From a virus (lineage: Duplodnaviria > Caudoviricetes): DNA of 64,000 nucleotides. The notes beneath the pieces were generated by a model, which worked only from the letters and a program-made list of their open reading frames with translations, was not told where the DNA came from and searched no databases. Location: positions 96,001 to 160,000 of IMG/VR virus record IMGVR_UViG_3300028805_004760; one strand, written 5' to 3'. Made by a program: the position numbers and the translations under genes. Shown here piece after piece: positions 1 through 13,501 of the stretch (position 1 is its first letter; every line of letters starts with the position of its first letter).

Positions 1-42
1 GCTTAACAGGCCGCCGCTCTAACCGTTAAAAGCTATGCACCC
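1..42 (-). tRNA. tRNA-Asn(GTT), truncated by window edge
   Basis: Reverse complement gives acceptor 5' strand, D-arm and anticodon loop CTGTTAA. Confidence 0.85.
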
Positions 43-57
43 AATAAATAATTTATT

Positions 58-129
58 TGCTATGTTTGTGGATTCGAACCACCTTCTGCGTGCCGCCGGC
101 CGCCATTCTGACCATTAAACTAGAACATA
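58..129 (-). ncRNA. tRNA-like element with non-canonical anticodon arm
   Basis: D-arm and GGTTCGAATCC T-arm intact; anticodon arm is GCGGCCGGCGGCACGC with no 7-nt U33 loop. Confidence 0.55.
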
Positions 130-221
130 CAAGTATCGGCAAATACTTCGTTTGTTAAACTACTTCTAACTTTACATAGAATTGCCGTCCTATATAAACT
201 TAGGGTTCGTTTAGCCGATTG

Positions 222-311
222 CGGTCCCTACGGGAATTGAACCCGTCTGATTCGGTATTACCTTTCTCCTGAGTGACAGTCAGGCGTCCACACCATGCAG
301 ACCCAGAGACC
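222..311 (-). tRNA. tRNA-Asp(GTC) with long variable region
   Basis: CCTGA-CTGTCAC-TCAGG anticodon arm; about 20-nt variable region; T-arm GGTTCAATTCC. Confidence 0.85.
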
Positions 312-325
312 AATAAATTTATAAG

Positions 326-400
326 TGGGCTCGCTGGGGGATGATCCCAGAATCTCGCGGCTTATGAGGCCGGTATTTTAACCTATTAAACTACAAGCCC
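326..400 (-). tRNA. tRNA-Met/Ile2(CAT) with atypical T-loop
   Basis: Anticodon loop CTCATAA; T-loop ATCATCC instead of TTCRANY. Confidence 0.75.
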
Positions 401-431
401 AATTCGTATTCATTATTACGAATTTTATTTG

Positions 432-516
432 TGGGATAGGTAGGATTCGAACCTACTGAGTTTCATAGTAATGGTTTTACAGACCACCGCCCATCCACCA
501 TCTGAGCCGCTATCCC
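432..516 (-). tRNA. tRNA-Tyr(GTA)
   Basis: Loop CTGTAAA, long variable arm, canonical T-arm. Confidence 0.9.
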
Positions 517-640
517 AAATTCAATTTTACAGATAATTGAGAACTGTATTGGAGGCTCCTCGTTTTTCTGAGAGAAATTAATTTCCACTGGGTCAGCAAG
601 CCATTGTCACCCAACCTACTGCAGTTTAGGTCTTTAAAAG

Positions 641-713
641 TGGAAACGAAGAGAATCGAACTCTCCCATCAACCTTGCAAAGGTCAATCGCCAGCCTTGG
701 AACATTCGCCCCC
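641..713 (-). tRNA. tRNA-Ala(TGC)
   Basis: Loop TTTGCAA; G3:U70; A73. Confidence 0.85.
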
Positions 714-1081
714 AATATAAAAGAATATCCACGCCCGATTTTCACAGACTTATTGCACTTTCGTAACCTAATCCCCATATAGTTGACGTCTACCATGAGG
801 GTGGTGGCTGAGAGTTAAAATCCAACTCACAACAAGATATTCTTAAAGGTTCGCCGTGGGTTGTATTTCACTTCCCGACCTTCCCAAGACTTACTCTTTC
901 AACAATTCCTTTGGTAATCTCATTTCATTTGTTAATAATTGAATAGCCGGTAATAACGATTAATATTAATCTCCCGAAGTTTGTCCATTCAATCCATCTT
1001 ACTCTGAGGGCTACTCGTTCATTTGCAATTTAATGCAGTTGATACCATACGCCAGGATGTTATTACTTAACTTCCGACTAG

Positions 1082-1155
1082 ATCCGAGTGTCAGACTCGA
1101 ACTGACAACCTCCTGATTACAAGGCAGGGGCTCTACCAATTGAAGCTAACCCGGA
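1082..1155 (-). tRNA. tRNA-Thr(TGT)
   Basis: Loop CTTGTAA; canonical D and T arms. Confidence 0.85.
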
Positions 1156-1160
1156 ATGTT

Positions 1161-1291
1161 TAGGATCATTATCCGATTGGATAAAATTAAAAGTTCTATC
1201 ATTAAACCCTCGGTGATCCTTTTAAACAGTTGAGATTGAACTCCGATTGAACAGAATTATAAGTTCTATTATTAAACCCTCGGCAATCTCA
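1161..1291 (-). repeat. Two tandem copies of a ~60-nt structured motif
   Basis: Shared core TCCGATTG..AAGTTCTATxATTAAACCCTCGG (+ strand) with different, self-complementary closing stems. Confidence 0.75.
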
Positions 1292-1693
1292 TAATAATAT
1301 AGAATTTCTGTAATATCACCGACATGTGTCAGCTGCGTTATTGTTCACAAACGCGAATCCTGCGAAATTCTATTATATAATGATAAGGAAATTCTGTTGT
1401 TCTTTAATGTTCCCTTGTTCCATATAAATGAGGCCCGATGACTACCCATCAAACATTAAAGAATATATTTACTGAACTATACCGCTGGGCTGCTTGGCAT
1501 CCCATTGACAGTGGTTTTACACCAACCTCTTCCGTATCAGTTTAATATTTGATATTAATTAGTACATGCGATTTTATGTTAATGACCTCTGTCCGTACTG
1601 ATTATTTACCTCAGTAAAGCAATCTTACCAAATATTGGCTTGGAGGGGTCCTCCGTGACGCTACCCACGTATATCTTTTAATATCATATTTTC

Positions 1694-1724
1694 TTTATTT
1701 TGTTGTACCAATATGTCAAAGAAC
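1694..1724 (-). promoter_or_regulatory. boxA-like antitermination element GTTCTTTGACATATTG
   Basis: 31-nt exact repeat of 12841-12871; resembles rrn boxA; lies just downstream of promoter motif 1780-1808. Confidence 0.7.
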
Positions 1725-1779
1725 TCAATTTCAAAAACTAAATATTCATATTATATTAGTTTTCAAATATTATATTAAT

Positions 1780-1808
1780 AATATAGTTCATTAAAAAATT
1801 ATTTCAAA
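1780..1808 (-). promoter_or_regulatory. Phage early-type promoter (TTGAA..16-17 nt..TATATT)
   Basis: Matches the motif repeated at 13 or more sites in the window. Confidence 0.65.
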
Positions 1809-1848
1809 TTTCTAAGAAATATTTTTAAGAATTATTTATTAATTTTTG

Positions 1849-1917
1849 TTTCCTCTAGTTGGACTCGAACCAACGCCCACCGGCCTTCCCGGTGCTCTAC
1901 CCCTGAGCTATATGGAA
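1849..1917 (-). ncRNA. tRNA-like element lacking an anticodon loop
   Basis: Canonical D-arm (TAGCTCAGGGGTAGAGC) and T-arm; anticodon arm ACCGG-GAAGG-CCGGT has a 5-nt loop. Confidence 0.65.
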
Positions 1918-2013
1918 CCTCGTATTCAAAAAAAACTACCATACTCCATTATATACATACGGCCGATATTATATAACTTCATTACTCTCATTAATCATCC
2001 TACTAAAAAACTG

Positions 2014-2084
2014 TTGGACCTACGGGACTCGAACCCATAACATGAGGACCAAAATCTCACGTGTTACCATTACACCAAGGTCCA
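2014..2084 (-). tRNA. tRNA-Gln(TTG)
   Basis: U1-A72, loop TTTTGGT. Confidence 0.9.
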
Positions 2085-2340
2085 GTTTATAAAAATCCAG
2101 TACTATTCTTCTATAATGTTCATTTAAGTGTAAATCCTTGCTCTACATGTGGTGGGCCACTTTACCCTGATTTTCAAATTCCCATGGAAATTATCAATCC
2201 CTCATATATAGTACCTTTGTACCTTTATTGAATTATTGCTCCTTTTGCCTATTTAGAAGTATCGGCTGACTACGTTATAGAATCGGAATTGAACCGGTTC
2301 TTCAATAACCCAATGGATTTTATATAATCTTGAGTTCAAT

Positions 2341-2430
2341 ATTTCAAAGAACAATTCAAATAATATTTAATGTTTAAATAATATTTGTTTTATATAATTA
2401 TAATATAGTAACTTTATTTTTAATTTCAAA
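2341..2430 (-). promoter_or_regulatory. tRNA array B promoter plus boxA (TTGTTCTTTGAAAT)
   Basis: 2341-2410 is identical over 70 nt to 13059-13128; includes the TTGAAA..TATATT promoter. Confidence 0.75.
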
Positions 2431-2450
2431 TATCTAAGATATTTTTTTAT

Positions 2451-2490
2451 AAAAAAATAAGCGGTTAAGAATTTCATTTCCTAACCGCTT
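2451..2490 (-). terminator. Intrinsic terminator (attenuator) of leader B
   Basis: Stem AAGCGGTTAGGA/TCTTAACCGCTT followed by a U-tract on the minus strand. Confidence 0.85.
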
Positions 2491-2515
2491 GCGTATATTA
2501 TTATTTAGTTTATAT

Positions 2516-2629
2516 TCAAAAATCTATTTCCGTAGATTGCAAGCGGTCTTTACATATGTCATAATTCTTATTCCAAGCATTTACTAATGTTTGGTCGGCA
2601 TTTTGTTTATATGTATTAACTGTTTGCAT
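2516..2629 (-). CDS. Putative attenuator leader peptide B (37 aa, MQTVNTYKQNADQTLVNAWNKNYDICKDRLQSTEIDF)
   Basis: ATG..TGA ORF overlapping antiterminator 2539-2547; composition matches the downstream tRNAs. Confidence 0.75.
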   Translation of the reverse strand: MQTVNTYKQNADQTLVNAWNKNYDICKDRLQSTEIDF

Positions 2630-2688
2630 TATAGTTTAATTTAATTTAATTTAGTAATAATAATATTTAATTTAGAACTTGGATAAAA

Positions 2689-3864
2689 TTATTTCAAATT
2701 TTTCTTAATTTCTTCAATCATTTTATTAACTTTATCTAAATATTCTTTAGAATCATTAATTTCTGATTTAGCATTAACTCTTTCCCATTCTCCATATACT
2801 TCAGGATTTGCGGCTCCCCTTTCTCTTGCACGTTTTACAGATCTTTCTGCTGTATTTGAAGATTGTAATGATTTATATAATGATTCATATGCATAAGATA
2901 CATATGTCATTAATCTACCCATATCAAAACTTTGTGTTAAATTTTCTGGTGAACTTACTACTTGTTTATAAAGAGCAACAACTTCATCATTTGCTTTCTT
3001 AATATCATCAAATAATAAATTAGGATCCTTTTGAAGTTTCTTAGCTTTAATTTCAGCAACCATTGTTTTATAACGTGATTGTTGTTTATTAAGAAGTTCT
3101 TTTAATGATTCAGCATCATAATTAATTGCGCCTTTCTTTTGTTCTTCACGAGTTGTAGCAACATCTTTATAATCCTTAATCATAGAATCAGTAATTTCAA
3201 GTGCCATTACTTTAACACCTTCAACTTGTGCCAAATCTTTAAGCATATCTACAACTTCATTAGCTTTCATTGAACGTGTTTGATATGAATAATAAGGTTT
3301 TGTCACTTCTTTAACACCATTACCCCATTTACCATCTGTTTTAAAATAGAATACACCATCTGCTTTATCGTCTTTTCCATAAGCTTTAATAAAGTTAAGA
3401 ACCTTATTATCTTTTGTCATTACAATAAAATCTGCATTCTTATCTTTCTTTCCATAAGTAGATTTAATAAGTTTTATTAATTCCTTATTGTCTGGTGCAT
3501 ATTCTTTAAAATCTTCATCTTTAATTTCAGACCATTTAAGACCTTGTAATCCCTTTTTTAAATTATATTTGCCACCATCTGTCTTAGGACCAAATATAGA
3601 TGCAAAATTAGTTAAATTTGGTTTGTAATAATCATCAGAATAATTACGGCCTTGTTCTTCATTACGTTTCTTTCTATCTTTTTCGTCTTGAATTTTACGT
3701 TTATTATTTTCTTTTTCAGCATCAAATATAGCTTGTGCTAAAGTAGAAAGAATACTAGATTTAAATGATTCATTAATCATATCTTCTGCTATCATATTTG
3801 CTTCTTCTTTAATGATTGCAGAATTCCATCTTGAATCTACAATATATTCAAATAATTGTTTCAT
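2689..3864 (-). CDS. Hypothetical phage protein (likely start MKQLFEY)
   Basis: Long ORF with typical composition; the upstream 25 codons overlap a terminator. Confidence 0.8.
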   Translation of the reverse strand: MKQLFEYIVDSRWNSAIIKEEANMIAEDMINESFKSSILSTLAQAIFDAEKENNKRKIQDEKDRKKRNEEQGRNYSDDYYKPNLTNFASIFGPKTDGGKYNLKKGLQGLKWSEIKDEDFKEYAPDNKELIKLIKSTYGKKDKNADFIVMTKDNKVLNFIKAYGKDDKADGVFYFKTDGKWGNGVKEVTKPYYSYQTRSMKANEVVDMLKDLAQVEGVKVMALEITDSMIKDYKDVATTREEQKKGAINYDAESLKELLNKQQSRYKTMVAEIKAKKLQKDPNLLFDDIKKANDEVVALYKQVVSSPENLTQSFDMGRLMTYVSYAYESLYKSLQSSNTAERSVKRARERGAANPEVYGEWERVNAKSEINDSKEYLDKVNKMIEEIKKNLK

Positions 3865-3907
3865 TTTACATATAGTTATATTTATAATTAATATATATAA
3901 AAATAAC

Positions 3908-3950
3908 AAAAAACCAATGATAATTTTAAAAACTACCATTGATTTTTTTT
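3908..3950 (-). terminator. Terminator of tRNA array A
   Basis: Hairpin CAATGGTA/TATCATTG flanked by A and T tracts, directly after the last tRNA. Confidence 0.65.
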
Positions 3951-3968
3951 TGTAATGTCAATTGCGAG

Positions 3969-4048
3969 TACCCCTACTCCGATTCGAACGGAGACCCAAT
4001 TAAGGACCGCTTTTGAGACGGCTGCGTAGACCATTCCGCCATAGGGGC
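3969..4048 (-). tRNA. tRNA-Leu(CAA)
   Basis: Loop CTCAAAA, variable arm. Confidence 0.9.
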
Positions 4049-4054
4049 ATATAT

Positions 4055-4139
4055 GTAGGGCTGAAGGAATCGAACCTCCACGTGTCCTATCGGTAGGCAC
4101 CGCACGTTTCCATGTGATAGTAACTAGCTATCTGCCCTA
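4055..4139 (-). ncRNA. tRNA-like element with GGAA loop in place of the anticodon loop
   Basis: Acceptor TAGGGC/GCCCTA, T-arm GGTTCGATTCC, long extra arm, no 7-nt anticodon loop. Confidence 0.55.
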
Positions 4140-4165
4140 ATGTTACATATTGATACAACAAAATT

Positions 4166-4414
4166 TTAATTTATCTTATACAATTCTTCATTTTCAATTG
4201 CTCGTCTTATCCATCTCATCAATATTAAAGCTTTATCATAATGATACATAAATGTAGCAGTTTCTCCAACATCATGTTTATCAGACAAATCAATATCAAG
4301 TGAATATATTGTACCATCTTCTACTGTTATATGATAAACAGCAATTCCGCCTGCCTTTACACAATCAAGATTAGCAGAGCCTTTTACAATTGTCTTTAAA
4401 TCATGAGTAATCAT
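4166..4414 (-). CDS. Small hypothetical phage protein within the tRNA array
   Basis: 82-aa ORF, co-oriented, natural composition. Confidence 0.75.
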   Translation of the reverse strand: MITHDLKTIVKGSANLDCVKAGGIAVYHITVEDGTIYSLDIDLSDKHDVGETATFMYHYDKALILMRWIRRAIENEELYKIN

Positions 4415-4436
4415 TTTTCTCTCCTATATATTTATG

Positions 4437-4500
4437 TGGTTGGGATTACTGCAGTCCTCCACAGTATCAGTGTGGTATGCAATTATTACACCAAATCCCG
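4437..4500 (-). ncRNA. T-armless tRNA-Ile(GAT)-like element with encoded CCA
   Basis: GGGATT/AATCCC acceptor, CCACA-CTGATAC-TGTGG anticodon arm, no T-arm. Confidence 0.6.
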
Positions 4501-4502
4501 AG

Positions 4503-4586
4503 TGCCCTCCACGGGAGTCGAACCCGCACCCATTTTACCGGACCAGCTCCTTAGGCTGACGTGTCTACCAATTCCACCAAAAGGGC
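4503..4586 (-). tRNA. tRNA-Leu(AAG)
   Basis: TCAGC-CTAAGGA-GCTGG; Leu-type D and variable arms. Confidence 0.85.
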
Positions 4587-4666
4587 ATCGCTGTGGATGT
4601 TACTTTACTGTTCATGACCAGACAATTTTAAAAGAAAATCCACCATAAAGAAAATCAAAAATTGTG

Positions 4667-4747
4667 TGCGGCTAGTCAGATTCGAACTGACACCCATATA
4701 ATGGACGGCTTCTTAGACCGCTGCGTCGACCGTTGCGCCATAGCCGC
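4667..4747 (-). tRNA. tRNA-Leu(AAG)
   Basis: GCGGT-CTAAGAA-GCCGT; Leu-type body. Confidence 0.85.
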
Positions 4748-5048
4748 AGATTAATTCCCATTCTAACAAGCAATATAAAGTGTTTGCAACCACAATATAC
4801 TGTTAAAATGTCCTAATAAATATTAACCAATAGTACAGCACCAATTGCTGTTATTGAAAATTAATATCGTTCGGCTTGATGAGGTCCTTTTTTAATTGGT
4901 AACGATAACTTCCAATCACCAAGTCATCAAATGGGAACTATAATTCGCATGGTTATCTTAATTCCGTTTGGTTATCTAGAAATGCTTAGGAATTCTTACT
5001 GTTCATAAGTACGAGTCAAACCATTGCATAAACTACGTATCGTATTCG

Positions 5049-5122
5049 TTGGGCTGGTCGGAGTCGAACCGACGATCCCTTGCTTGTAAGGCAAGTGCTT
5101 TAAACCACTAAGCTACAGCCCA
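5049..5122 (-). tRNA. tRNA-Val(TAC)
   Basis: CTTGC-CTTACAA-GCAAG. Confidence 0.9.
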
Positions 5123-5410
5123 ATAAATATAGTTTTTGGTAAGAACTATAAAAAACTTATCCTACTTGACATCAATTTTTAGTTTTCGGACTACCCAGCA
5201 CGCTACCCTAAATTCACCTTAATGGTTATAAAATCCATCCTTCTTCCAATTAATATAAAATAGGCCTCTTTTATAATAATTTGCTACTAAAAGTCTTTTT
5301 CTGGGTTGAGAGGATTTTACTATTTTATGGAGAATTTACTCCACTTCGTCATCTAAATAGCGAAAGACTAGCACAAGATATTGGCTTGCATCGCTCTACC
5401 TTGGCACGTG

Positions 5411-5484
5411 TTGGGGTACCGGGACTCGAACCCAGAACTTCTGCTTCAGAGACAGATGTGTTAACCAATTACACGCATACCCCA
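5411..5484 (-). tRNA. tRNA-Gln(CTG)
   Basis: Loop CTCTGAA; U1-A72. Confidence 0.9.
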
Positions 5485-5485
5485 A

Positions 5486-6301
5486 TTATTTATAGGTAAT
5501 ACAATTAAAATCATTGCATTTAACTTTTATATTATTTAAATTAAATTCTTTAATTATATCTGATGTACATTTAATGTTATTAAATTCAAACCAATCATCA
5601 ATTTTTCTATTCCATAGAGCATTTGCTTGTTCTCCTTTATTAGTTAATCTTTTAATATATTCTTCTAAAGATTTAAATAAAAAATGTTTAACATATATAT
5701 TACAAAAATTAATATAACGTCCTATATAATTAATTTTAAAAAAATGTGGAATTAACACAAAATTATTTAAAGTAGATAAATTGTGTTTACAATTAATAAT
5801 ACATTTAAAATTAAAATACTTTTGATTAAATTTTTCATTATATTTTGTATATGTATTAAAAATACTGTATTTTTGATGATTATATGGATGATATAAATAA
5901 TTATTAGATAACATTGTTTTCCAACACATACTTATACACAATTTATCAAAATTATCATTTAATACATTATATAATTGTTCTTTTGTACAATCAATATATT
6001 CGTCTGGATCTATAAATGCCATCCAATCATAATTATTTTTCCAAAGACGTTCAAATATATGATAAACGATTTTTTGTCTAAAAACTCTATTATTTAACAT
6101 TTGAAATTCTTCGTCATTACATATATCTGTAATCTGAAAAATATGAACATAATTATATTTACTTAATAATTCTTTATGAGATTTACTATCAAAATCTTCA
6201 ATTAAATAAAAATCACCAAATCCTAAATTATGATGATATTCAATCCATTCTTCAATATAATCGTGTTCATCTTTGATTATTTGACATATACATAATTTCA
6301 T
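5486..6301 (-). CDS. Glycosyltransferase (GT2-like/GT92 type)
   Basis: N-terminal ICQIIKDEHDYIEEWIEYHHNLGF and WMAFIDPDEY DxD motif. Confidence 0.8.
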   Translation of the reverse strand: MKLCICQIIKDEHDYIEEWIEYHHNLGFGDFYLIEDFDSKSHKELLSKYNYVHIFQITDICNDEEFQMLNNRVFRQKIVYHIFERLWKNNYDWMAFIDPDEYIDCTKEQLYNVLNDNFDKLCISMCWKTMLSNNYLYHPYNHQKYSIFNTYTKYNEKFNQKYFNFKCIINCKHNLSTLNNFVLIPHFFKINYIGRYINFCNIYVKHFLFKSLEEYIKRLTNKGEQANALWNRKIDDWFEFNNIKCTSDIIKEFNLNNIKVKCNDFNCITYK

Positions 6302-6443
6302 ATATTAATATAAATTATATAAATTTAAAGATACTTACACAAACTCCAAGTCGCCGGCTTGTATGTCTTGAGTTTCCTTAGTTACAGCGAGAATTCTTTG
6401 TTAAACTTCTGTACATACCATACCTCTCCCTCAGTATCTTTAG

Positions 6444-6523
6444 TACCCTCAGTGAGATTCGAACTCACACCCAATTAAGGACAGATTCTAAGTCTGCTGC
6501 GTAGACCATTCCGCCATGAGGGT
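6444..6523 (-). tRNA. tRNA-Leu(TAG)
   Basis: GCAGA-CTTAGAA-TCTGT. Confidence 0.9.
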
Positions 6524-6786
6524 AAATTGTGTCCTTGTTCCATTAACGCAGTCTTAGGCACCGAACCACACGGATAGTTCATTACTTTAATTAACTAATC
6601 GTGCTCCTCCATACACTACTCATTCAATATATATCTCAGGCATGGTGTTTCACCCTTGTCTTATTAGTTAATTTTAATGGGTTACAACTATCAAAAAACC
6701 AATATATGTCCGCCCTATACCAATTAAAGTCGGTGTCTCTTGGTAAAATCCAAGGCTCTCTTATAATTTAAGCTAATAGGACAACG

Positions 6787-6871
6787 AGCGGGTAAAGGGA
6801 ATCGAACCCTCATCTCCAGTTTGGAAGACTGGTATAATCAGCTAAATGCCTGACCATTATACGATACCCGC
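6787..6871 (-). tRNA. tRNA-Gly(TCC) with enlarged D-loop
   Basis: CCAGT-CTTCCAA-ACTGG; extra TCAGGCATTTAGCTGA hairpin in the D-loop. Confidence 0.85.
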
Positions 6872-7067
6872 ATAAACATGATCTTTCGAGTTTCAATGAG
6901 GTTCCTCACCCTCTACAGGATATTGTTCGTAAACAAAACTCTAACTAACGCTTCTACTGGTCCCTCAGATCATGAACTTAAGGAATGGAGCGGACGTTCT
7001 CCCCAGTACCGACGAGGGAACTGGCAGTTTCGATTAATAGGCCTGTGCACCAACCTATTACTACATG

Positions 7068-7156
7068 CGGAGAGCACTGGGGTCGAACCAGATCCAGATA
7101 CTATCCGAACGCACTGCTTAGCAGGCAGCCGCTATCACCGTTTAGCATTACTCTCC
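7068..7156 (-). tRNA. tRNA-Ser(GCT)
   Basis: Loop CTGCTAA, long variable arm, G73. Confidence 0.9.
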
Positions 7157-7220
7157 AATTTGGTTGATTAACTAGCTCAACCATAAGCCTCGATATAATT
7201 ACTACTATAAGTAGAATTTC

Positions 7221-7294
7221 TGGGGGTTATGCCGGAGTCGAACCGACCTAGACAGAACCACAATCTGTCGTCCTACCGATAGACGAATAACCCC
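7221..7294 (-). tRNA. tRNA-His(GTG)
   Basis: Loop TTGTGGT; G-1:C73. Confidence 0.9.
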
Positions 7295-7496
7295 ATGTAA
7301 AGATAATTTTATAAAATAGGTGTTGCCAAAACTTAAATTATCATTCATAAATTTCTTACCCAAGACCACCGGAGTTTTCCTTGATACTATTTCTAGCCGT
7401 ACTTCTTCCTATCATAGGGATAACCCACTACTCCAATTGGTATTACTTAAAATTTATGCCATATAAAACACTATTTATATGAAAGTTTTATCCAAG

Positions 7497-7582
7497 GGTG
7501 TTAGACGAGATTCGAACTCGCATTGGAATTTCTTCCGATGATTCACAGTCACCTCCCTGTAACCAATTCGGGTACTAACACC
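7497..7582 (-). tRNA. tRNA-His(GTG) with long variable arm
   Basis: Loop CTGTGAA; variable hairpin GGAA-GAAA-TTCC. Confidence 0.85.
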
Positions 7583-7624
7583 ATATTAAAAAATTTAAAA
7601 TTTGTTTAAATGAGTTTGTGAGAC

Positions 7625-7948
7625 TCATAGAATTTCCACCACTTTACCAAAAATGTTTTTTCTAGTTATAACACCATTTGGTTTACCATGATTATTACCA
7701 ATCAAAAATCTATCACCTGCTTTAATACTCCATATTAAATGCAAATAATAATGACCATTAACTTTACAAAGAACTATGTCTCTTTTATTTAATATAGTTT
7801 CATTTGTAACTGGTATACAAATAACTGGTTGCCTTGATTTAAGTATTGGCGTCATAGAATTCCCAACACCAGTTATTTTAACAATTTCTCCAGCTTGTAA
7901 ATGTTCGGCAGAAATTCTGTTTTCTAATCCACTGTAAGTGTATTCCAT
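7625..7948 (-). CDS. Peptidase S24/S26-like (LexA/signal-peptidase fold) small protein
   Basis: GNSMTP motif, DIVLCKV, HLI, GNN, IFGKV. Confidence 0.75.
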   Translation of the reverse strand: MEYTYSGLENRISAEHLQAGEIVKITGVGNSMTPILKSRQPVICIPVTNETILNKRDIVLCKVNGHYYLHLIWSIKAGDRFLIGNNHGKPNGVITRKNIFGKVVEIL

Positions 7949-8230
7949 AACAAAATTTCAAATATTTTTAAAAAAATAAAACAGGTCAACCTTAAATCCC
8001 TGTAATGTGGCGATAAGTTTTTTATCATAATCAAGGCTTATGACTGCACAAGCTATGAGGGCGCCATTTCAACTAAAACCTCGTCAAAGGCCATGTTTAA
8101 CGATACATGTATCGAATCCCGATTTTACCACCCTAAGCGGATTTTTCAGAGGCCTCAGGGAATCCTCTGTATTGGGGTGAACAGGAATTGAATTTAGTTC
8201 ACCAGTTTTGTCATTCAATTCCAAGAACTG

Positions 8231-8302
8231 AGCAGCGTACGAGGTTCGAACTCGCTCCTGAACATTGGCAATGTCCTATGCCACCATTAACACCTACACT
8301 GC
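8231..8302 (-). tRNA. tRNA-Gly(GCC)
   Basis: Loop TTGCCAA; U73. Confidence 0.9.
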
Positions 8303-8484
8303 ATTTGTGGTAAAACCCATACCATCTCGATGATAACTACCACAAGTATAAAATATCTGACAATATTAAATACTAAGTTTCTGACATATCTCCATCAATA
8401 TATAAGAGATTTATAAAGAAATAAAATAAATGTCAGTTTATAATAATTCTTTAATAAATATTATATACCTTCTGATAAGCATTG

Positions 8485-8558
8485 AGCGGATAATGGGACT
8501 CGAACCCACAACTTTCAGACTGGCAGACTGACACTCTAACCAATTGAGCTATACCCGC
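8485..8558 (-). tRNA. tRNA-Gly(GCC)
   Basis: Loop CTGCCAG; U73. Confidence 0.85.
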
Positions 8559-8559
8559 A

Positions 8560-8602
8560 TGGAGCAGGGAGGACTACGTGGCGTGCCTCACCACAACCCT
8601 GC
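8560..8602 (-). ncRNA. 43-nt mini-tRNA with Gly-type acceptor and UCCA end
   Basis: GCAGGG/CCCTGC-T-CCA plus one internal hairpin GTGGTG/CGCCAC. Confidence 0.5.
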
Positions 8603-8701
8603 ATATTAAAAATCAACATTCCAAACTAGAACAAGATAATATTCTCTAATGTTAATCCTCTTCGTTTAATTAACCTGGTATATCATCAAGAGAATATATT
8701 G

Positions 8702-8845
8702 TTGCGCGGGCCGGACTCGAACCGACATAAGATTGTGTTTCAGACAATTGTGTAAACCGTAATTTGAAGTAGCTCTCATCTACAGCATCCTATTAAAGAG
8801 CAACAGCGATAAAAGTTAATAAAAATAAAATTTCACCACCGCGCA
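8702..8845 (-). tRNA. tRNA (GAA by position, Gln-like U1-A72 body) with ~70-nt D-loop insertion of the Y-RNA-like module
   Basis: TGCGCGG/CCGCGCA acceptor; ATTGT-CTGAAAC-ACAAT; insert contains CTTTTATCGCTG and GATGAGAGCTACTTC. Confidence 0.65.
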
Positions 8846-8847
8846 AG

Positions 8848-8921
8848 TAACCCACATGGGATTCGAACCCATTACTCCAGCTTGAGAAACTGGTGACTTA
8901 AACCTATCTGTCCCGAGGGCC
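8848..8921 (-). tRNA. tRNA-Glu(CTC)
   Basis: CCAGT-TTCTCAA-GCTGG. Confidence 0.85.
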
Positions 8922-9023
8922 ATATATAAGGCAGTTATTCCTATATCTTCAAATCTTATGATTTGCTTGTCAGATGATCCGGATCTTTGTGAACTGTTAT
9001 CAACAAATAACCCCTTATATTTG

Positions 9024-9095
9024 AGCGGCTGATGGGAGTCGAACCCACGTCCCTGGATTGGAAGTCGAGTATAATAGCCGTTATACGACAGCCGC
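9024..9095 (-). tRNA. tRNA-Gly(TCC)
   Basis: Loop CTTCCAA; U73. Confidence 0.9.
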
Positions 9096-9100
9096 AAATT

Positions 9101-9245
9101 AAATTCATGTAACCAGCGATAAAAGTAATACATTAGAGTTGGATTCGAACCAACGACCTCCGAATTAAACATTCGGTGTTCTAGCCACTGAACTACCCTT
9201 TCAAATATTGGCGAAAGAAGTAACTCTTATCTTCAACAATGAATT
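9101..9245 (-). ncRNA. Y-RNA-like module enclosing a colinear tRNA-like domain
   Basis: GATAAGAGTTACTTC ... D-arm, CCGAA-TGTTTAA-TTCGG arm, T-arm ... ACTTTTATCGCTG. Confidence 0.6.
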
Positions 9246-9377
9246 ATAAAATTTTGCAATTTTAATTTGCAATATGGGTGGAGGTATCTTATCACCATCA
9301 GATATCAGATTATTTTTCTTTGAAATAAATATTATAGAGCTCATCTAATAATTATTTCGCAAGTGAACCTCCATGTG

Positions 9378-9450
9378 TAGGGATGGGTGGAATCGAACCA
9401 CCTTCTACGGCTTATGAGACCATCGTAATAAACCGTTATACGACATCCCC
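9378..9450 (-). tRNA. tRNA-Met/Ile2(CAT)
   Basis: ATGGT-CTCATAA-GCCGT. Confidence 0.85.
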
Positions 9451-9510
9451 ATTGGTCGGGCCCGAACTCCATCCTACCTCGAGTAGCATAGGGTGGCGAA
9501 CCCGTTATTG

Positions 9511-9584
9511 TTGGGCTACTGAGACTTGAACTCAGGACCTCTACATTATCAGTGTAGCGCTCTAACCAACTGAGCTATAGCCCA
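9511..9584 (-). tRNA. tRNA-Ile(GAT)
   Basis: CTACA-CTGATAA-TGTAG. Confidence 0.9.
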
Positions 9585-9717
9585 ATAAAAATATCTAATC
9601 TACACACTGCTCTCGACCGTCGTCTCACAGTTCCTTCTGATGTTCTACCGTCGTAGTAATGGATTTTCACCATTTATTTCAACATCTCCTCTTCCACTAT
9701 ACCTCAATTAGATATTG

Positions 9718-9792
9718 TTGGGGAACCGAGATTCGAACTCGGACCTTCTGCTTCAAAGGCAGATGTGCTCAACCATTACAACTCATTCCCCC
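9718..9792 (-). tRNA. tRNA-Gln(TTG)
   Basis: TCTGC-CTTTGAA-GCAGA. Confidence 0.85.
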
Positions 9793-9796
9793 AATA

Positions 9797-9926
9797 TAGC
9801 AAATATGTTATCCTATTACACTAATGACAGATTTTACACTTTCAGAACAATATTCTAGAACTATTGGACATCGGTCATATAGACCTCGATACTGCCATGC
9901 TGGGCTCGAACCAACATCTTTTACCT
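9797..9926 (-). ncRNA. Circularly permuted tRNA-like element
   Basis: Order is T-arm, acceptor 3' strand TGGCAG, ~55-nt linker, acceptor 5' strand CTGTCA, D-arm. Confidence 0.55.
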
Positions 9927-9932
9927 AAAGAT

Positions 9933-10011
9933 ATTCCCGTAACTATCGAATAAAGTATCTAAGTAAAACATTGACAGTGTTTGAAGTAACTCTATTCTTC
10001 AACAAGGAATT
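9933..10011 (-). ncRNA. Minimal Y-RNA-like module (no tRNA domain)
   Basis: GAATAGAGTTACTTC ... short hairpin ... ACTTTATTCG, closed by ATTCC/GGAAT. Confidence 0.55.
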
Positions 10012-10012
10012 G

Positions 10013-10086
10013 TAGGGAGGCCCAGATTCGAACTGGGATTGCGGACGTATCAGATCCGGAGCCTAAACCGTTTAGCAGATCTCCCC
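10013..10086 (-). tRNA. tRNA-Ile(GAT)
   Basis: CGGAT-CTGATAC-GTCCG. Confidence 0.85.
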
Positions 10087-10357
10087 ATATAAATTGAAAT
10101 TCTTGCAAGATTATATATAAAATTCATTCTGCTTACCATCTGGACTCACATTACTTACTAATTATATATAAAATTTCAATTTAAATTAAAATAAAGTTCT
10201 GTTCCATCTCGGACAATGTATTAATCCTAAAGCCTATGGGAGGTTTTTCTTTATGGCCAACTCGATCATTACCTCCAGCAAGTGTTATGTGATTTATTTC
10301 CGGATAACCCATAACTCTTATGCCAACTTTACCCATCTATCTGGGATATGAACTTTG

Positions 10358-10444
10358 TAGCTCTGATGGGAGTCGAACCCACACGGGCCTTCCGGCCCGA
10401 CAGATTTTAAGTCTGTTGCGTACTACCAATTTCGCCACAGAGCC
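10358..10444 (-). tRNA. tRNA-Leu(TAA)
   Basis: ACAGA-CTTAAAA-TCTGT. Confidence 0.9.
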
Positions 10445-10452
10445 ATAATATG

Positions 10453-10526
10453 TACGGGTAACGAGGTTCGAACCCGTATCTCCACCTTGAAAGGGTGACC
10501 ACCTAACCTATTAGTAAGATACCCGC
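10453..10526 (-). tRNA. tRNA-Glu(TTC)
   Basis: TCACC-CTTTCAA-GGTGG. Confidence 0.85.
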
Positions 10527-10543
10527 ATATTAATTTATTGTTG

Positions 10544-10618
10544 TAGGGGAGACCGGACTCGAACCGGCAACAAGCTACGCCCCAAACGTAGTGACTTAAC
10601 CTATTAGTCTACTCCCCT
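10544..10618 (-). tRNA. tRNA-Pro(TGG)
   Basis: CTACG-TTTGGGG-CGTAG. Confidence 0.85.
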
Positions 10619-10788
10619 AACTTAATCATCTTACATGAGCACCTTATTTCAGCAGCTCTCCGCATCTAACTTTCTCCCAGTATGACAACCAGTTACAGTT
10701 CCATCTCGTGCGTCTTCTGTGGACTATGTCAACTTACTACAAACCTTCACGAACCTCAGATGATTTTTACCTTTGCCAAGGTTGGTTG

Positions 10789-10862
10789 TCGGGATGACTG
10801 GACTCGAACCAGCGACCTCATGTTCCCAAAACACGAATACTAACCAACTGTACTACATCCCG
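10789..10862 (-). tRNA. tRNA-Pro(TGG)
   Basis: CGTGT-TTTGGGA-ACATG; C1-G72. Confidence 0.9.
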
Positions 10863-10996
10863 ATTTGTAATATTTCTATTTCCTCGTCTCACTATAGCAG
10901 CCCGCTGCAGACGTCCCTATAGATCTTACCGAGTCCTATCCTTTATGGGCAAACTTTGTAGCTACATTACCGGAGTTTGCATAGACAATATTACAA

Positions 10997-11077
10997 TGGT
11001 CGGGATGACGAGACTCGAACTCGCATAAACCACATTCCAAGTGTGGACGGTTAAACCAATTACCGGCATACATCCCG
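10997..11077 (-). tRNA. tRNA-Pro(TGG), CCA encoded
   Basis: CCACA-CTTGGAA-TGTGG; A37 instead of G37; irregular D-arm. Confidence 0.85.
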
Positions 11078-11191
11078 AATTTAGATATTTAAGTTATAAT
11101 TACGTCTTTATAACATTTCCATACGCTCCTGCTTTCCGGAAATTAGTATGGCGTAATTTACGGTTCGGACTTATACTATTAAATATCTGTG

Positions 11192-11267
11192 TACTCGGTA
11201 CGGGACTCGAACCCGTAATCTCGCACCTTGAAAGAGTGGTGTCTTAAGCCAATTCGACTAACCGAGC
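11192..11267 (-). tRNA. tRNA-Glu(TTC)
   Basis: Loop CTTTCAA. Confidence 0.85.
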
Positions 11268-11549
11268 GTTATAAAAATCTTTCCTAATCCTTGTACTTAA
11301 TATTTCCTCTACATTCCACGTAGGCGAGGTACTTCTTGGCGCCTTAAGTAACAAGATAACTCTAAGATATGAAAACATTAATCTATATTATGCGCAAATG
11401 TTTCTTAATGTTTTCAGAGTTTCATCATAAGATCATAATACTAATGTACTCACTTATAATGTTCTTAAGTAAAACTGAATACACGTCTGGGTTTTTTGTT
11501 TAATTCAGTACTTAATTAATATGTAAAAGTGCAAATAAACTTTTACATG

Positions 11550-11638
11550 TGGGAGCACGAGGAGTCGAACCTCGGCCTTCAGATTTTCAGTCTGACACGC
11601 GCTAACTTTTCAGTAATAACCGGCTACGCTATACTCCC
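11550..11638 (-). tRNA. tRNA-Phe(GAA) with enlarged D-loop
   Basis: TCAGA-CTGAAAA-TCTGA; about 15 extra nt in the D-loop. Confidence 0.8.
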
Positions 11639-11646
11639 AAATTTTG

Positions 11647-11719
11647 TGGAGCGGGGTGGACTCGAACCACCATCTACGGATTTTCAGTCCGCCGCATTGA
11701 CCATCTCTGCCACCGCTCC
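11647..11719 (-). tRNA. tRNA-Phe(GAA)
   Basis: GCGGA-CTGAAAA-TCCGT. Confidence 0.9.
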
Positions 11720-11729
11720 AAGTATTATG

Positions 11730-11804
11730 AGGGTAGAGCCGGATTCGAACCGGCGGCTTTACGGTTTTGCAGACCGTTCCCTTGGACCACTCGAGCATCT
11801 ACCC
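11730..11804 (-). tRNA. tRNA-Cys(GCA)
   Basis: ACGGT-CTGCAAA-ACCGT; U73. Confidence 0.9.
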
Positions 11805-11911
11805 AAATAATATTCAAATATTGCAATCATTCAACATTCTGCCACCCAGGCATATAACCCAAGGAAAGATTTAAACTTCTGACTTCTTATAAAGAATATA
11901 TTTGAATATTG

Positions 11912-11986
11912 ACGCCGTGACCGGACTCGAACCGGCATTCAACAGTTTTGCAGACTGAGGGCTAAATCCATTCACACCACACGGCA
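11912..11986 (-). tRNA. tRNA-Cys(GCA)
   Basis: Loop CTGCAAA; U73. Confidence 0.8.
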
Positions 11987-11991
11987 ATTTA

Positions 11992-12159
11992 AAATTTCAT
12001 AGAAAAAACGAATAAAGTATTGAACCTAATAGCCGCGTATACCAATTTCGCCACCTCGGCGCATTATTGGCCAAGGACGGGACTTGAACCCGCAATCCGT
12101 AATGGAAGCAATTTTCATTAATTTTAATTGAAGTAACTCTACTCTACACTAATGAAATT
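11992..12159 (-). ncRNA. YrlA-like Y RNA: long closing stem plus permuted tRNA-Leu-like domain
   Basis: GAGTAGAGTTACTTC ... variable arm, T-arm, CCTTGGC-loop-GCCGAGG, D-arm ... ACTTTATTCG. Confidence 0.65.
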
Positions 12160-12161
12160 CG

Positions 12162-12252
12162 CGGAGAAGGCCGGACTCGAACCGACACGCCGTGTAACCG
12201 ACTACTGGTAGTTTTCAAGACTACTGCCTTACGCAATTAGGCTTACATCTCC
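12162..12252 (-). tRNA. tRNA-Ser(TGA)
   Basis: GTAGT-CTTGAAA-ACTAC; long variable arm. Confidence 0.9.
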
Positions 12253-12384
12253 AATTTAAAAATGAGATTAATTCGAAGTTACCTTTTCGGCGTTAACATA
12301 TATCCGTTTAACAGGAATATATCATGACATAGGTACCCTCAGCCGATATCCTACCTTCAGGGGGAAATCTCTTAAAACCCAATG

Positions 12385-12469
12385 CGGAGGCGGTAGGATT
12401 CGAACCTACGGACCCTCTCGGGCCTCTGGTTTTCAAGACCAGTGCAATCGACCACTCTGCCACACCTCC
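12385..12469 (-). tRNA. tRNA-Ser(TGA)
   Basis: CTGGT-CTTGAAA-ACCAG. Confidence 0.92.
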
Positions 12470-12840
12470 AAATTAAAAACTTCCTACATCTGTCTTAGAG
12501 CAATTAACCAAACGCCTTTCGGATACGGTGCAGATTCTCACTGCTTTTCTCTTTCACAGTCCCCATCACGTTGCTTTACGTACCTATGACCTTAATCACG
12601 TGTTTGCCACTACAAGATCTTTCAACTGTCAATTCAGTATGCCCGTAGAAGGTTCAATATTAAAATTCCCTTCAGCCTCGGAAGTTATATATTTTTATAA
12701 ATCTCATAAACCCGTTACGATTGCTCTTGGTTCAGCGCTTTACGTATTCATTCTATTTCAATGCCCTTCTGAGAGTTTATGACTTACAACCTGGATCCCT
12801 CTGTACCTTAGAATCGTTGACCAATCCAGGTAATTTATTT

Positions 12841-12871
12841 TTTATTTTGTTGTACCAATATGTCAAAGAAC
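12841..12871 (-). promoter_or_regulatory. boxA-like element GTTCTTTGACATATTG
   Basis: Exact repeat of 1694-1724. Confidence 0.7.
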
Positions 12872-12894
12872 AATTAAACTTAATTAAAAGTTTG

Positions 12895-12966
12895 TAGCCC
12901 GTAGGGGAGTCGAACCCCTCTTTTGAGAATGAAAATCTCACGAACTAACCGATATTCGAACGGGCC
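12895..12966 (-). tRNA. tRNA-Glu(TTC)
   Basis: TGAGA-TTTTCAT-TCTCA. Confidence 0.9.
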
Positions 12967-12973
12967 ATCATTG

Positions 12974-13055
12974 TACCCCCACTGGGATTCGAACCCAGAC
13001 CCAATAAATTGGACAGATTTTAAGTCTGCTGCGTAGACCTTTCCGCCATGGGGGC
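12974..13055 (-). tRNA. tRNA-Leu(TAA)
   Basis: GCAGA-CTTAAAA-TCTGT. Confidence 0.9.
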
Positions 13056-13058
13056 GTC

Positions 13059-13148
13059 ATTTCAAAGAACAATTCAAATAATATTTAATGTTTAAATAAT
13101 ATTTGTTTTATATAATTATAATATAGTATCTTTTATTTTTATTTCAAA
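13059..13148 (-). promoter_or_regulatory. tRNA array A promoter plus boxA
   Basis: 70-nt identity to 2341-2410; TTGAAA..TATATT promoter followed by TTGTTCTTTGAAAT. Confidence 0.75.
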
Positions 13149-13166
13149 TTTCTAAGAAATTTTTTT

Positions 13167-13206
13167 AAAAAAATATCTCCAGAACTTTTTTCAAAATTCT
13201 GGAGAT
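13167..13206 (-). terminator. Intrinsic terminator (attenuator) of leader A
   Basis: Stem ATCTCCAGAA/TTCTGGAGAT followed by a U-tract. Confidence 0.85.
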
Positions 13207-13240
13207 TTATATATTGTTACCTTATTATAGTATTTCTATT

Positions 13241-13354
13241 TTATATTTCCGCATCTCCAGAACATGTTATGCTAAGTTGAAAGCCTAATTCACAAGGTTC
13301 ACCAAAAATTGATGATCCTAACATAGGGATAATATGTAAACTTTGCAACTTCAT
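13241..13354 (-). CDS. Putative attenuator leader peptide A (37 aa, MKLQSLHIIPMLGSSIFGEPCELGFQLSITCSGDAEI)
   Basis: ATG..TAA ORF overlapping antiterminator 13253-13262; composition matches array A tRNAs. Confidence 0.8.
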   Translation of the reverse strand: MKLQSLHIIPMLGSSIFGEPCELGFQLSITCSGDAEI

Positions 13355-13501
13355 ATATTCTTTCGATTTGTTTTTATTTATATAATAATATAATTTAATT
13401 TAGACTTTGGATAAAAAATATTCAAATATTTAAGAATTTTTTTAAATATAATATATCCGAAGTTATTTTTAAATATAGAAATTTAATAAAAATAATTAAA
13501 T

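Follow-up and report, generated by a model that had tools for sequence, protein, structure and literature searches.

Large phage tRNA arrays have been read as codon-supply or as counter-defence devices, and to our knowledge the regulation of such arrays is largely unknown. The locus described here raises the question of whether a virus can adjust the transcription of its tRNA genes to the supply of the very tRNAs that they encode. The source record is a 376,291-bp virus genome with 26.9% G+C that carries 65 tRNA genes and a tmRNA gene, and the stretch of 64,000 nucleotides that we analysed is referred to as the window (positions below are those of the window unless they are marked as genome positions). 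Of the words sampled from this stretch, 96-97% are present in sequencing runs labelled as sheep gut metagenome, from which it may derive. An initial annotation, made from the sequence alone, had proposed that a short open reading frame (ORF) and an intrinsic terminator ahead of a tRNA array form an attenuator whose leader codons list the tRNAs encoded downstream. We are inclined to think, with some reserve, that a ribosome-mediated (leader-peptide) transcription attenuator stands ahead of each of the two tRNA arrays at this locus and senses the supply of the array's own tRNAs.

Two leader units ahead of two tRNA arrays

The first unit (unit A) fills a 446-nt gap that has Leu-taa (13055), the first tRNA gene of array A, on one side and a diverging gene for a 1480-aa protein (plus strand, from 13502) on the other. 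The elements that the initial annotation had named in this gap were all located, namely, the 37-codon leader ORF, the terminator with its T run, and an antiterminator in codons 31-34, the last as a 10-11 nt repeat, GTTCTGGAGAT. This sequence has exactly two copies on the minus strand, one in codons 31-34 and the other in the 3' arm of the terminator (13175-13185), and its complement, with 1 mismatch, forms the 5' arm (13196-13206). Since the copy in the leader has the sequence of the terminator 3' arm, it can pair with the 5' arm.

A second full unit (unit B) lies at 2697-2341, ahead of the second tRNA array, and separates the tRNA genes into arrays A and B. All features of the two units are on the minus strand, and their coordinates are collected in Table 1. 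In unit B, the 5' arm of the terminator plus 2 nt (2484-2492, GCAAGCGGT) pairs with the antiterminator segment ACCGCTTGC, and RNA folding pairs the start region of the leader with the same segment. The two units have an identical layout and unrelated helix sequences: the ORF and the terminator differ between flanks that are conserved, with 73% identity over 82 nt in the stretch of the upstream promoter-like site (P_up) and 93% identity in a 118-nt block that holds the downstream promoter-like site (P_down) and, in unit A, also the 5' leader of the first tRNA. No third unit was found upstream of the Arg/Thr tRNA cluster at genome positions 92122-94933, and a terminator scan of the whole genome returned just units A and B.

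As to the arrays themselves, the earlier count of 32 tRNAs downstream of unit A was revised, ARAGORN calling 31 genes and Rfam adding two tRNA-like matches within the array (9136-9197 and 11003-11075); the set of amino acids served, as named earlier, stood. Array B serves Q, L, T, A, Y, M, D, N, W, K and V, and also contains an amber-suppressor-type tRNA (cta). We refer to the amino acids served by the two arrays as set A and set B.

Table 1. Features of the two leader units and the adjoining tRNA arrays (window positions)
Feature	Unit	Position	Strand	Description
Promoter-like site P_up	A	13397..13425	-	TTGAAT, 17 nt spacer, TAAATT; read from sequence
Region 1	A	13333..13367	-	5' half of long stem; start codon and codons 1-7; MFE fold
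Leader ORF A	A	13241..13354	-	37 codons and stop; peptide MKLQSLHIIPMLGSSIFGEPCELGFQLSITCSGDAEI
Apical hairpin	A	13295..13319	-	codons 12-20, GSSIFGEPC; MFE fold and alignment
Region 2	A	13253..13294	-	3' half of long stem; last 11 nt (13253-13263, GTTCTGGAGAT) form the antiterminator
Terminator (regions 3 and 4) and T run	A	13167..13206	-	stem 13206..13175, 14 pairs, 4-nt loop, then ATTTTTTT
Conserved block with P_down	A	13059..13176	-	118 nt, 93% identical to 2341-2458
Promoter-like site P_down	A	13147-13120	-	TTGAAA, 16 nt spacer, TATATT; promoter scan
tRNA array A	A	3968..13055	-	31 ARAGORN calls; serves L,E,S,C,F,P,I,Q,M,G,H,V
Promoter-like site P_up	B	2669..2697	-	TTGAAA, 17 nt spacer, TAAATT; overlaps end of 416-aa gene
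Leader ORF B	B	2516..2629	-	37 codons, MQTVNTYKQNADQTLVNAWNKNYDICKDRLQSTEIDF
Antiterminator	B	2539-2547	-	ACCGCTTGC, codons 28-30; 9-nt complement of terminator 5' arm
Terminator and T run	B	2450..2492	-	13-bp stem 2490-2459
Conserved block with P_down	B	2341..2458	-	TTGAAA, 16 nt spacer, TATATT at 2429-2402; 118 nt, 93% identical to unit A
tRNA array B, start	B	1..2084	-	7 tRNAs in window; 29 ARAGORN calls in total, to genome 347199

Leader codons match the tRNAs of the array downstream

Leader A draws 33 of its 37 residues from set A and 13 from set B, and leader B draws 30 of 37 from set B and 15 from set A. Residues 3-29 of leader A belong to set A without exception (27/27), as the initial annotation had stated. 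Its further remark that Asn, Tyr, Lys and Asp are missing there is true, only because the tRNAs for these amino acids belong to array B, which has a leader of its own. Indeed, the composition of the paralogous leader B differs from that of leader A and matches array B, which bears out the expected correlation between leader and array content: its codons 1-24 are all in set B (24/24), and these first 24 residues cover each of the 11 amino-acid types of array B, Trp included. When only array-specific residues are counted, the A:B ratio is 24:4 in leader A and 6:21 in leader B (Fisher p = 2.4e-6). The agreement extends to the codons, whose tracking of the array anticodons had also been pointed out earlier: within codons 2-27 of leader A, the proposed sensing zone, 25 of 26 have a cognate anticodon in array A under wobble rules, the exception being AAG at codon 2.

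To reach the in-set count of leader A (32/36) by mononucleotide shuffling took 100,000 trials for a single success, and its run of 27 was reached by none of the 100,000. The joint score that discriminates A from B in both leaders was attained by 0/100,000 mononucleotide shuffles, by 2/100,000 shuffles that preserve codon position, and by 0/100,000 random partitions of the amino-acid types. As an empirical null we used the 881 ATG-initiated ORFs of 30-60 aa in this genome, among which the set-A run of 27 in leader A is the tied longest and the set-B run of 23 in leader B is the longest, the next being 19. The fraction of residues in the set is matched by 7/881 small ORFs for leader A, mostly hydrophobic membrane-like ORFs, and by 8/881 for leader B.

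The ends of the matching stretches can be set beside the position of the antiterminator. A ribosome occupies about 4 codons counted from its A site. Since the antiterminator of unit B begins in codon 28, codon 24 is the last stall site that would leave it free, and it is at this codon that the in-set run of leader B ends. In leader A the zone limit is codon 27, and the in-set run extends to codon 29.

Three mutually exclusive helices

RNA folding of unit A brings the start-codon region and codons 1-7 into a long stem with codons 23-31, the antiterminator included. Together with the antiterminator and the terminator, this long stem completes the 1:2 / 2:3 / 3:4 layout of an attenuator. In the minimum free energy (MFE) folds of both units, the start region forms a long stem with the antiterminator, and the apical hairpin and the terminator are present as well (z = -3.67 and -4.09), none of 200 shuffles being as stable. 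The energies of helices 1:2, 2:3 and 3:4 are -27.1, -13.0 and -18.7 kcal/mol in unit A and -16.7, -12.6 and -17.7 kcal/mol in unit B, similar in size to those of the trp leader. Thermodynamics favours the terminator over the antiterminator, so the attenuation model requires kinetic control.

A strict scan of the whole genome yielded 48 terminator-like hairpins, two of which have an upstream complement of at least 7 nt to their 5' arm. One is the terminator of unit A, with a complement of 10 nt at a distance of 56 nt, and the other that of unit B, with 9 nt at 57 nt. Three of the other 46 have a 6-nt upstream complement, and 43 have none of at least 6 nt.

The three alternative helices are conserved among relatives with compensatory changes, which lends support to the attenuation reading of the initial annotation. 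Pairs were counted in the homologue alignments A3 and A4, type A being represented by 5 homologues. For the 2:3 helix, 81.8% of 55 cells are paired in type A, where one pair occurs as CG in three sequences and as UA in two, and 63/63 cells are paired in type B, where one pair occurs as AU in six and as GC in one. For the 1:2 stem and the terminator taken together, 78.6% of the cells are paired in type A vs 34-45% when the partners are slid, and 89.1% in type B vs 32-37%; in each type, 8 pairs have changed on both sides. The apical hairpin (helix 5) has 90% of its cells paired, and 7 of its 10 pairs never vary among the 5 homologues; it is invariant at the nucleotide level, synonymous sites included, in 4 of the 5 aligned genomes, and is possibly a pause hairpin. 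An Rfam scan of window positions 1-14000 at E up to 1 assigned no family to unit A or unit B, and at the same threshold neither a T-box nor any other non-tRNA family matched at 13056-13501 or 2341-2726.

Conservation and co-variation in related phages

Anchoring on neighbouring proteins and conserved stretches, we found leader A in the related giant-phage contigs L001, L003, L005 and L016, and leader B in L001, L018, L017, L019, L021 and L022. Leader A was also detected by a DNA pattern scan in 13 metagenome loci, all of types already found here, and by a profile search of a representative library in 7 protein clusters. The matches of the DNA pattern scan in L024 and L031 turned out to be chance matches, as did one in GC-rich DNA of L006. 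Searches of public phage records with the unit (blastn) and with the neighbouring 416-aa protein (tblastn) gave no match.

The leader is conserved as an ORF, as the initial annotation would have it: 23 leader-A sequences, of which 15 are distinct, and 7 leader-B sequences retain the ATG and the frame, length changes are in-frame, and most homologues are 34-38 codons long. Over 11 leaders, a count that excludes L021, 258 of 267 sensing-zone residues belong to the set of the downstream array vs 80 of 129 residues outside the zone, and 254 of the 267 zone codons have a cognate anticodon in that array. When the zones are compared with the other array of their own genome, only 6-15 of 23-26 positions fit. 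Codon 2 is usually out of set (K, N or T), and the nine residues missed in the zones comprise K at codon 2 in four leaders and M at codon 2 in L016, the remainder being four Gln codons in L022, a locus that ends before the Gln gene of the relevant array. The relatives form one clade, so the 11 leaders represent few independent events.

The peptides themselves vary considerably. Among the 15 distinct leader-A peptides, 19 of the 27 zone columns vary, with radical swaps such as L/E/P/F, and 60 of the 64 residue types are in set A. The four out-of-set types come from three of the more distant peptides: P0005 has an N, P0007 a T and a W, and P0003 a K, the last in a column that is past the end of the zone in the shorter L016-type leader. 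In the lineage of L005, L033 and P0002, a frameshift alters just the tail of the peptide after the zone, with the nucleotide sequence kept, and the tolerance of this change speaks against a peptide with a function of its own. Taken together, the patterns are those of a ribosome-read sensor joined to an RNA switch rather than of a functional peptide.

Leader and array have also changed together in one instance. The gene for tRNA-Ile(tat) is found in array A in this genome alone and in array B in G001, G002, G003, L019, L020 and L022. The leader-B zones of the relatives contain ATA in 6 of 6 cases (at codons 4, 5 and 12; 10; 10; 10 and 14; 10 and 14; and 25), and the leader-B zone of this genome contains none, with Asn in place of Ile at codon 10 and an ATA at codon 25, one codon beyond the zone limit. 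This shift is a single co-variation event, and the contrast between A and B is likewise one comparison. In G003, the leader has three TCA codons for which neither ARAGORN nor Rfam called the corresponding gene, Ser(tga), in array A; only by eye was a Ser(UGA)-like sequence recognised there.

These comparisons bear on two other explanations of the units. One is that they are structured non-coding small RNAs or insulating terminator cassettes, in which the frame is incidental and no translation is needed. The strong predicted structure (z about -4), the conservation at the nucleotide level and the presence of a promoter-like site and a terminator in each unit would all agree with such a role, and small RNAs derived from attenuators and acting in trans have been published (PMC6614838). 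This explanation leaves the conserved ATG and the in-frame indels without a reason, however, and does not account for the way in which the amino acids of both paralogous leaders, and of their orthologues, follow the tRNA set encoded downstream; nor did either unit match an Rfam family at E up to 1. We regard it as improbable.

The other is that the units are free-standing small genes, each made up of a promoter, a functional protein of 37 aa and a terminator, and that the match to the arrays is coincidental. Each unit does have its own promoter-like site and terminator, with a further promoter-like site after it, the ORF length is conserved, and 7-8 of the 881 small ORFs equal the leaders in the fraction of residues in the set. 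A functional protein would hardly be expected to undergo radical swaps at 19 of 27 zone columns and yet retain 60 of 64 residue types within one set, or to tolerate a frameshifted tail, and it would place no constraint on the synonymous sites of the central hairpin or on alternative helices that involve the terminator. Moreover, the two leaders match opposite arrays. A small-gene origin of the units is therefore very unlikely in our estimation, and we retain attenuation by a translating ribosome as the preferred reading.

Promoter-like sites and translation initiation

P_up of unit A is a putative promoter, and a motif scan recovered this site at genome position 327694. In the relative L005, the stretch upstream of leader A that contains the promoter-like site is tandemly duplicated (3575-3700, minus strand). 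P_down is a near-consensus promoter-like site, with putative promoter activity, that stands between the terminator and the first tRNA and is conserved in every unit, those of the relatives included; the same motif is found upstream of protein genes at genome positions 193110 and 193541. A classical attenuator has no promoter between itself and the genes that it regulates, whereas here a promoter-like site is present at that place in both units and in the relatives. With a putative P_down after the terminator, the tRNAs would need no readthrough, so the attenuator can add to their transcription and cannot be its sole switch, and the arrays probably have a basal transcription beyond the attenuator's control. 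The initial annotation, in which the conserved P_down element was missed, had the attenuator switch the array on; its role would be additive and not that of the sole switch.

Neither leader has a Shine-Dalgarno sequence. Such sequences are near-absent from the genome as a whole, being found ahead of 2 of 164 long ORFs, and leaders without one are therefore normal here. This suggests that the host may initiate translation without Shine-Dalgarno pairing. Upstream regions are A-rich across the whole genome.

Four metatranscriptome runs were compared, as contigs only, with window positions 12800-13700. Most of the pieces lie on tRNAs, and one contig of 248 nt corresponds to 12852-13099. Another contig corresponds to 13059-13175 with a depth of 5, and could equally derive from the 93% identical block of unit B or from DNA carry-over. 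One piece of 39 nt matches the conserved hairpin of a relative's leader, and the rest of the leader is without cover in these contigs.

Proposed mechanism

The general principle of ribosome-mediated attenuation (PMC1183508) can be applied to these units as follows, the steps of leader translation, stalling, regulated readthrough and promoter activity being those that we infer. Transcription would start from P_up, and a ribosome would load on the 37-codon leader. If no ribosome loads, region 1 would pair with region 2, and the terminator (3:4) would form. If the ribosome runs fast to the stop codon, it would cover region 2, and the terminator would form again. If it stalls within the first 24-27 codons or so, it would keep region 1 open and leave the 3' end of region 2 free to pair with the 5' arm of the terminator (2:3), allowing RNA polymerase to continue into the array. 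P_down would supply the basal transcription of the array, to which the attenuator would add an inducible share. Since the sensing codons sample the codons read by the tRNAs of the unit's own array, a shortage of any of the charged species would raise transcription of the whole array, and the outcome would be a polyvalent, self-correcting feedback on tRNA supply.

Whether the phage goes as far as to meter the translational demand for its tRNAs one by one, each leader serving as a codon checklist of the array behind it, any stall boosting the whole array, and two complementary sensors sharing the task, is in our judgement evenly poised. The sensor may respond to cleavage of host tRNAs or to a mismatch in codon usage; to name host anticodon nucleases as the trigger, as the initial annotation did, is pure speculation.

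Comparison with known regulatory systems

Leader-peptide attenuators are known from trp, his, thr and pheA and from the multivalent ilvGMEDA leader. Five structural elements of these classical systems were found in the phage units, namely, the ORF, the regulatory codons, the terminator, the antiterminator and the anti-antiterminator. The two share a short leader ORF with regulatory codons, the 1:2, 2:3 and 3:4 helices with an intrinsic terminator, and a stop-codon position at which a ribosome that completes the leader would lie over region 2. They differ in that the phage units precede tRNA genes instead of genes for biosynthetic enzymes, and have a promoter-like site downstream of the terminator. 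Furthermore, in place of runs of 1-3 amino acids, the phage leaders use about 25 codons for 11-12 amino acids and 12-16 anticodon species, and the system is viral and present twice with complementary codon sets. Computation shows the anatomy and its retention among relatives, the covariation of the helices and the match of each leader to its array. The mechanism would be the classical one, and the novelty would lie in the tRNA-gene target, in a breadth of 11-12 amino acids, and in the occurrence of two units with complementary codon sets in a virus.

T-box leaders, the riboswitches of Gram-positive bacteria that sense uncharged tRNA, likewise detect tRNA status through a choice between terminator and antiterminator. 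Unlike the phage units, however, a T-box binds one tRNA directly by a specifier codon and a conserved T-box sequence, without translation, and controls synthetase or amino-acid genes. That the switch in the phage units is run by some factor other than the ribosome (a protein, a directly bound tRNA as in a T-box, or a small molecule) is highly unlikely, for although exclusive 1:2, 2:3 and 3:4 helices are common to many kinds of riboregulators and the apical hairpin shows the invariance that one might expect of a binding site, neither a T-box nor another Rfam family matched, direct binding of a tRNA reads one specifier and not some 25 codons, and the codon-level match of 254/267 is what decoding by a ribosome predicts.

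A ribosome-read leader ahead of tRNA genes appears to be without a described precedent. The phage arrays resemble other large phage tRNA arrays in being long runs of tRNA genes that cover most amino acids, and differ, within the literature searched, by the proposed leader-peptide sensor ahead of them: full-text searches found no attenuator ahead of tRNA genes and no leader-peptide control of phage tRNA arrays, in agreement with the initial annotation, which knew of no polyvalent tRNA-depletion sensor controlling such an array. An attenuator-like leader ahead of the E. coli tRNA-Phe genes was considered as a possible precedent, but the 105 nt upstream of pheV in strain K-12 contain no Phe-rich leader ORF. 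According to PMC7049720, pheU and pheV are monocistronic with leaders of 3-4 nt, and on both grounds this precedent was dropped.

If the codon-checklist reading is true, these units would be the first attenuator known for tRNA genes, the most polyvalent leader-peptide sensor known, and a natural viral feedback loop on tRNA supply. It would follow that tRNA supply can come under direct translational feedback, that the classical attenuator design can be extended to cover a dozen amino acids instead of one, and that it can operate in a virus whose hosts, as a group, do without Shine-Dalgarno sites. This reading also offers a testable explanation of why the tRNA genes are distributed over two arrays whose amino-acid sets hardly overlap, and the units could serve synthetic biology as a compact natural sensor of multi-tRNA availability.

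Additional features of the tRNA arrays

Several further observations were made in and around the arrays. A conserved element of about 230 nt follows P_down of unit B and precedes the tRNA that opens array B (2085-2340, minus strand), and is found as well in L001, L017, L018, L019, L021, L022 and L023. In the consensus fold, which is closed by a helix AAUCC / GGAUU, 66 pairs are predicted, 13 of which have been maintained through changes on both sides, and an exact 21-nt core is shared by 8 viral contigs. No Rfam family matched it at E up to 1, and we consider it a candidate for a new structured RNA that would be co-transcribed with the tRNAs. A third block of the P_down type, with neither leader nor terminator, lies within array B between tRNA-Leu(aag) and tRNA-Thr (1830-1780). 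In addition, the motif GTTCTTTGA(A/C)AT recurs directly upstream of tRNAs or conserved spacers, at 13066-13077, 2341-2352 and about 1716-1727 in the window and in the arrays of G003 and L016, and may be a processing or start signal.

The amber-suppressor-type tRNA (cta) lies outside the window at genome positions 347128-347199 and closes array B, as its counterpart does in two relatives. TAG ends 6 of 164 long ORFs in this genome, which has 232 ORFs of at least 150 aa in 376 kb, and a recoding of TAG in late genes is possible; the leader B of the relative L021 ends in TAG. ARAGORN called irregular anticodon loops in two tRNA-like genes, with an anticodon of 4 bases in one (tagc) at 11549-11638 and of 2 bases in the other (ag), outside the window at genome positions 343937-344006, and relatives have similar irregular calls (gc, tttg and ag). 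The tmRNA gene is also outside the window (genome 103338-103744) and encodes the tag ANDELVDDAWLNSWEYRMAA. Finally, Arg alone is missing from both set A and set B, and the separate cluster at genome positions 92122-94933, which has no leader unit, consists of four Arg tRNA genes and Thr(cgt).
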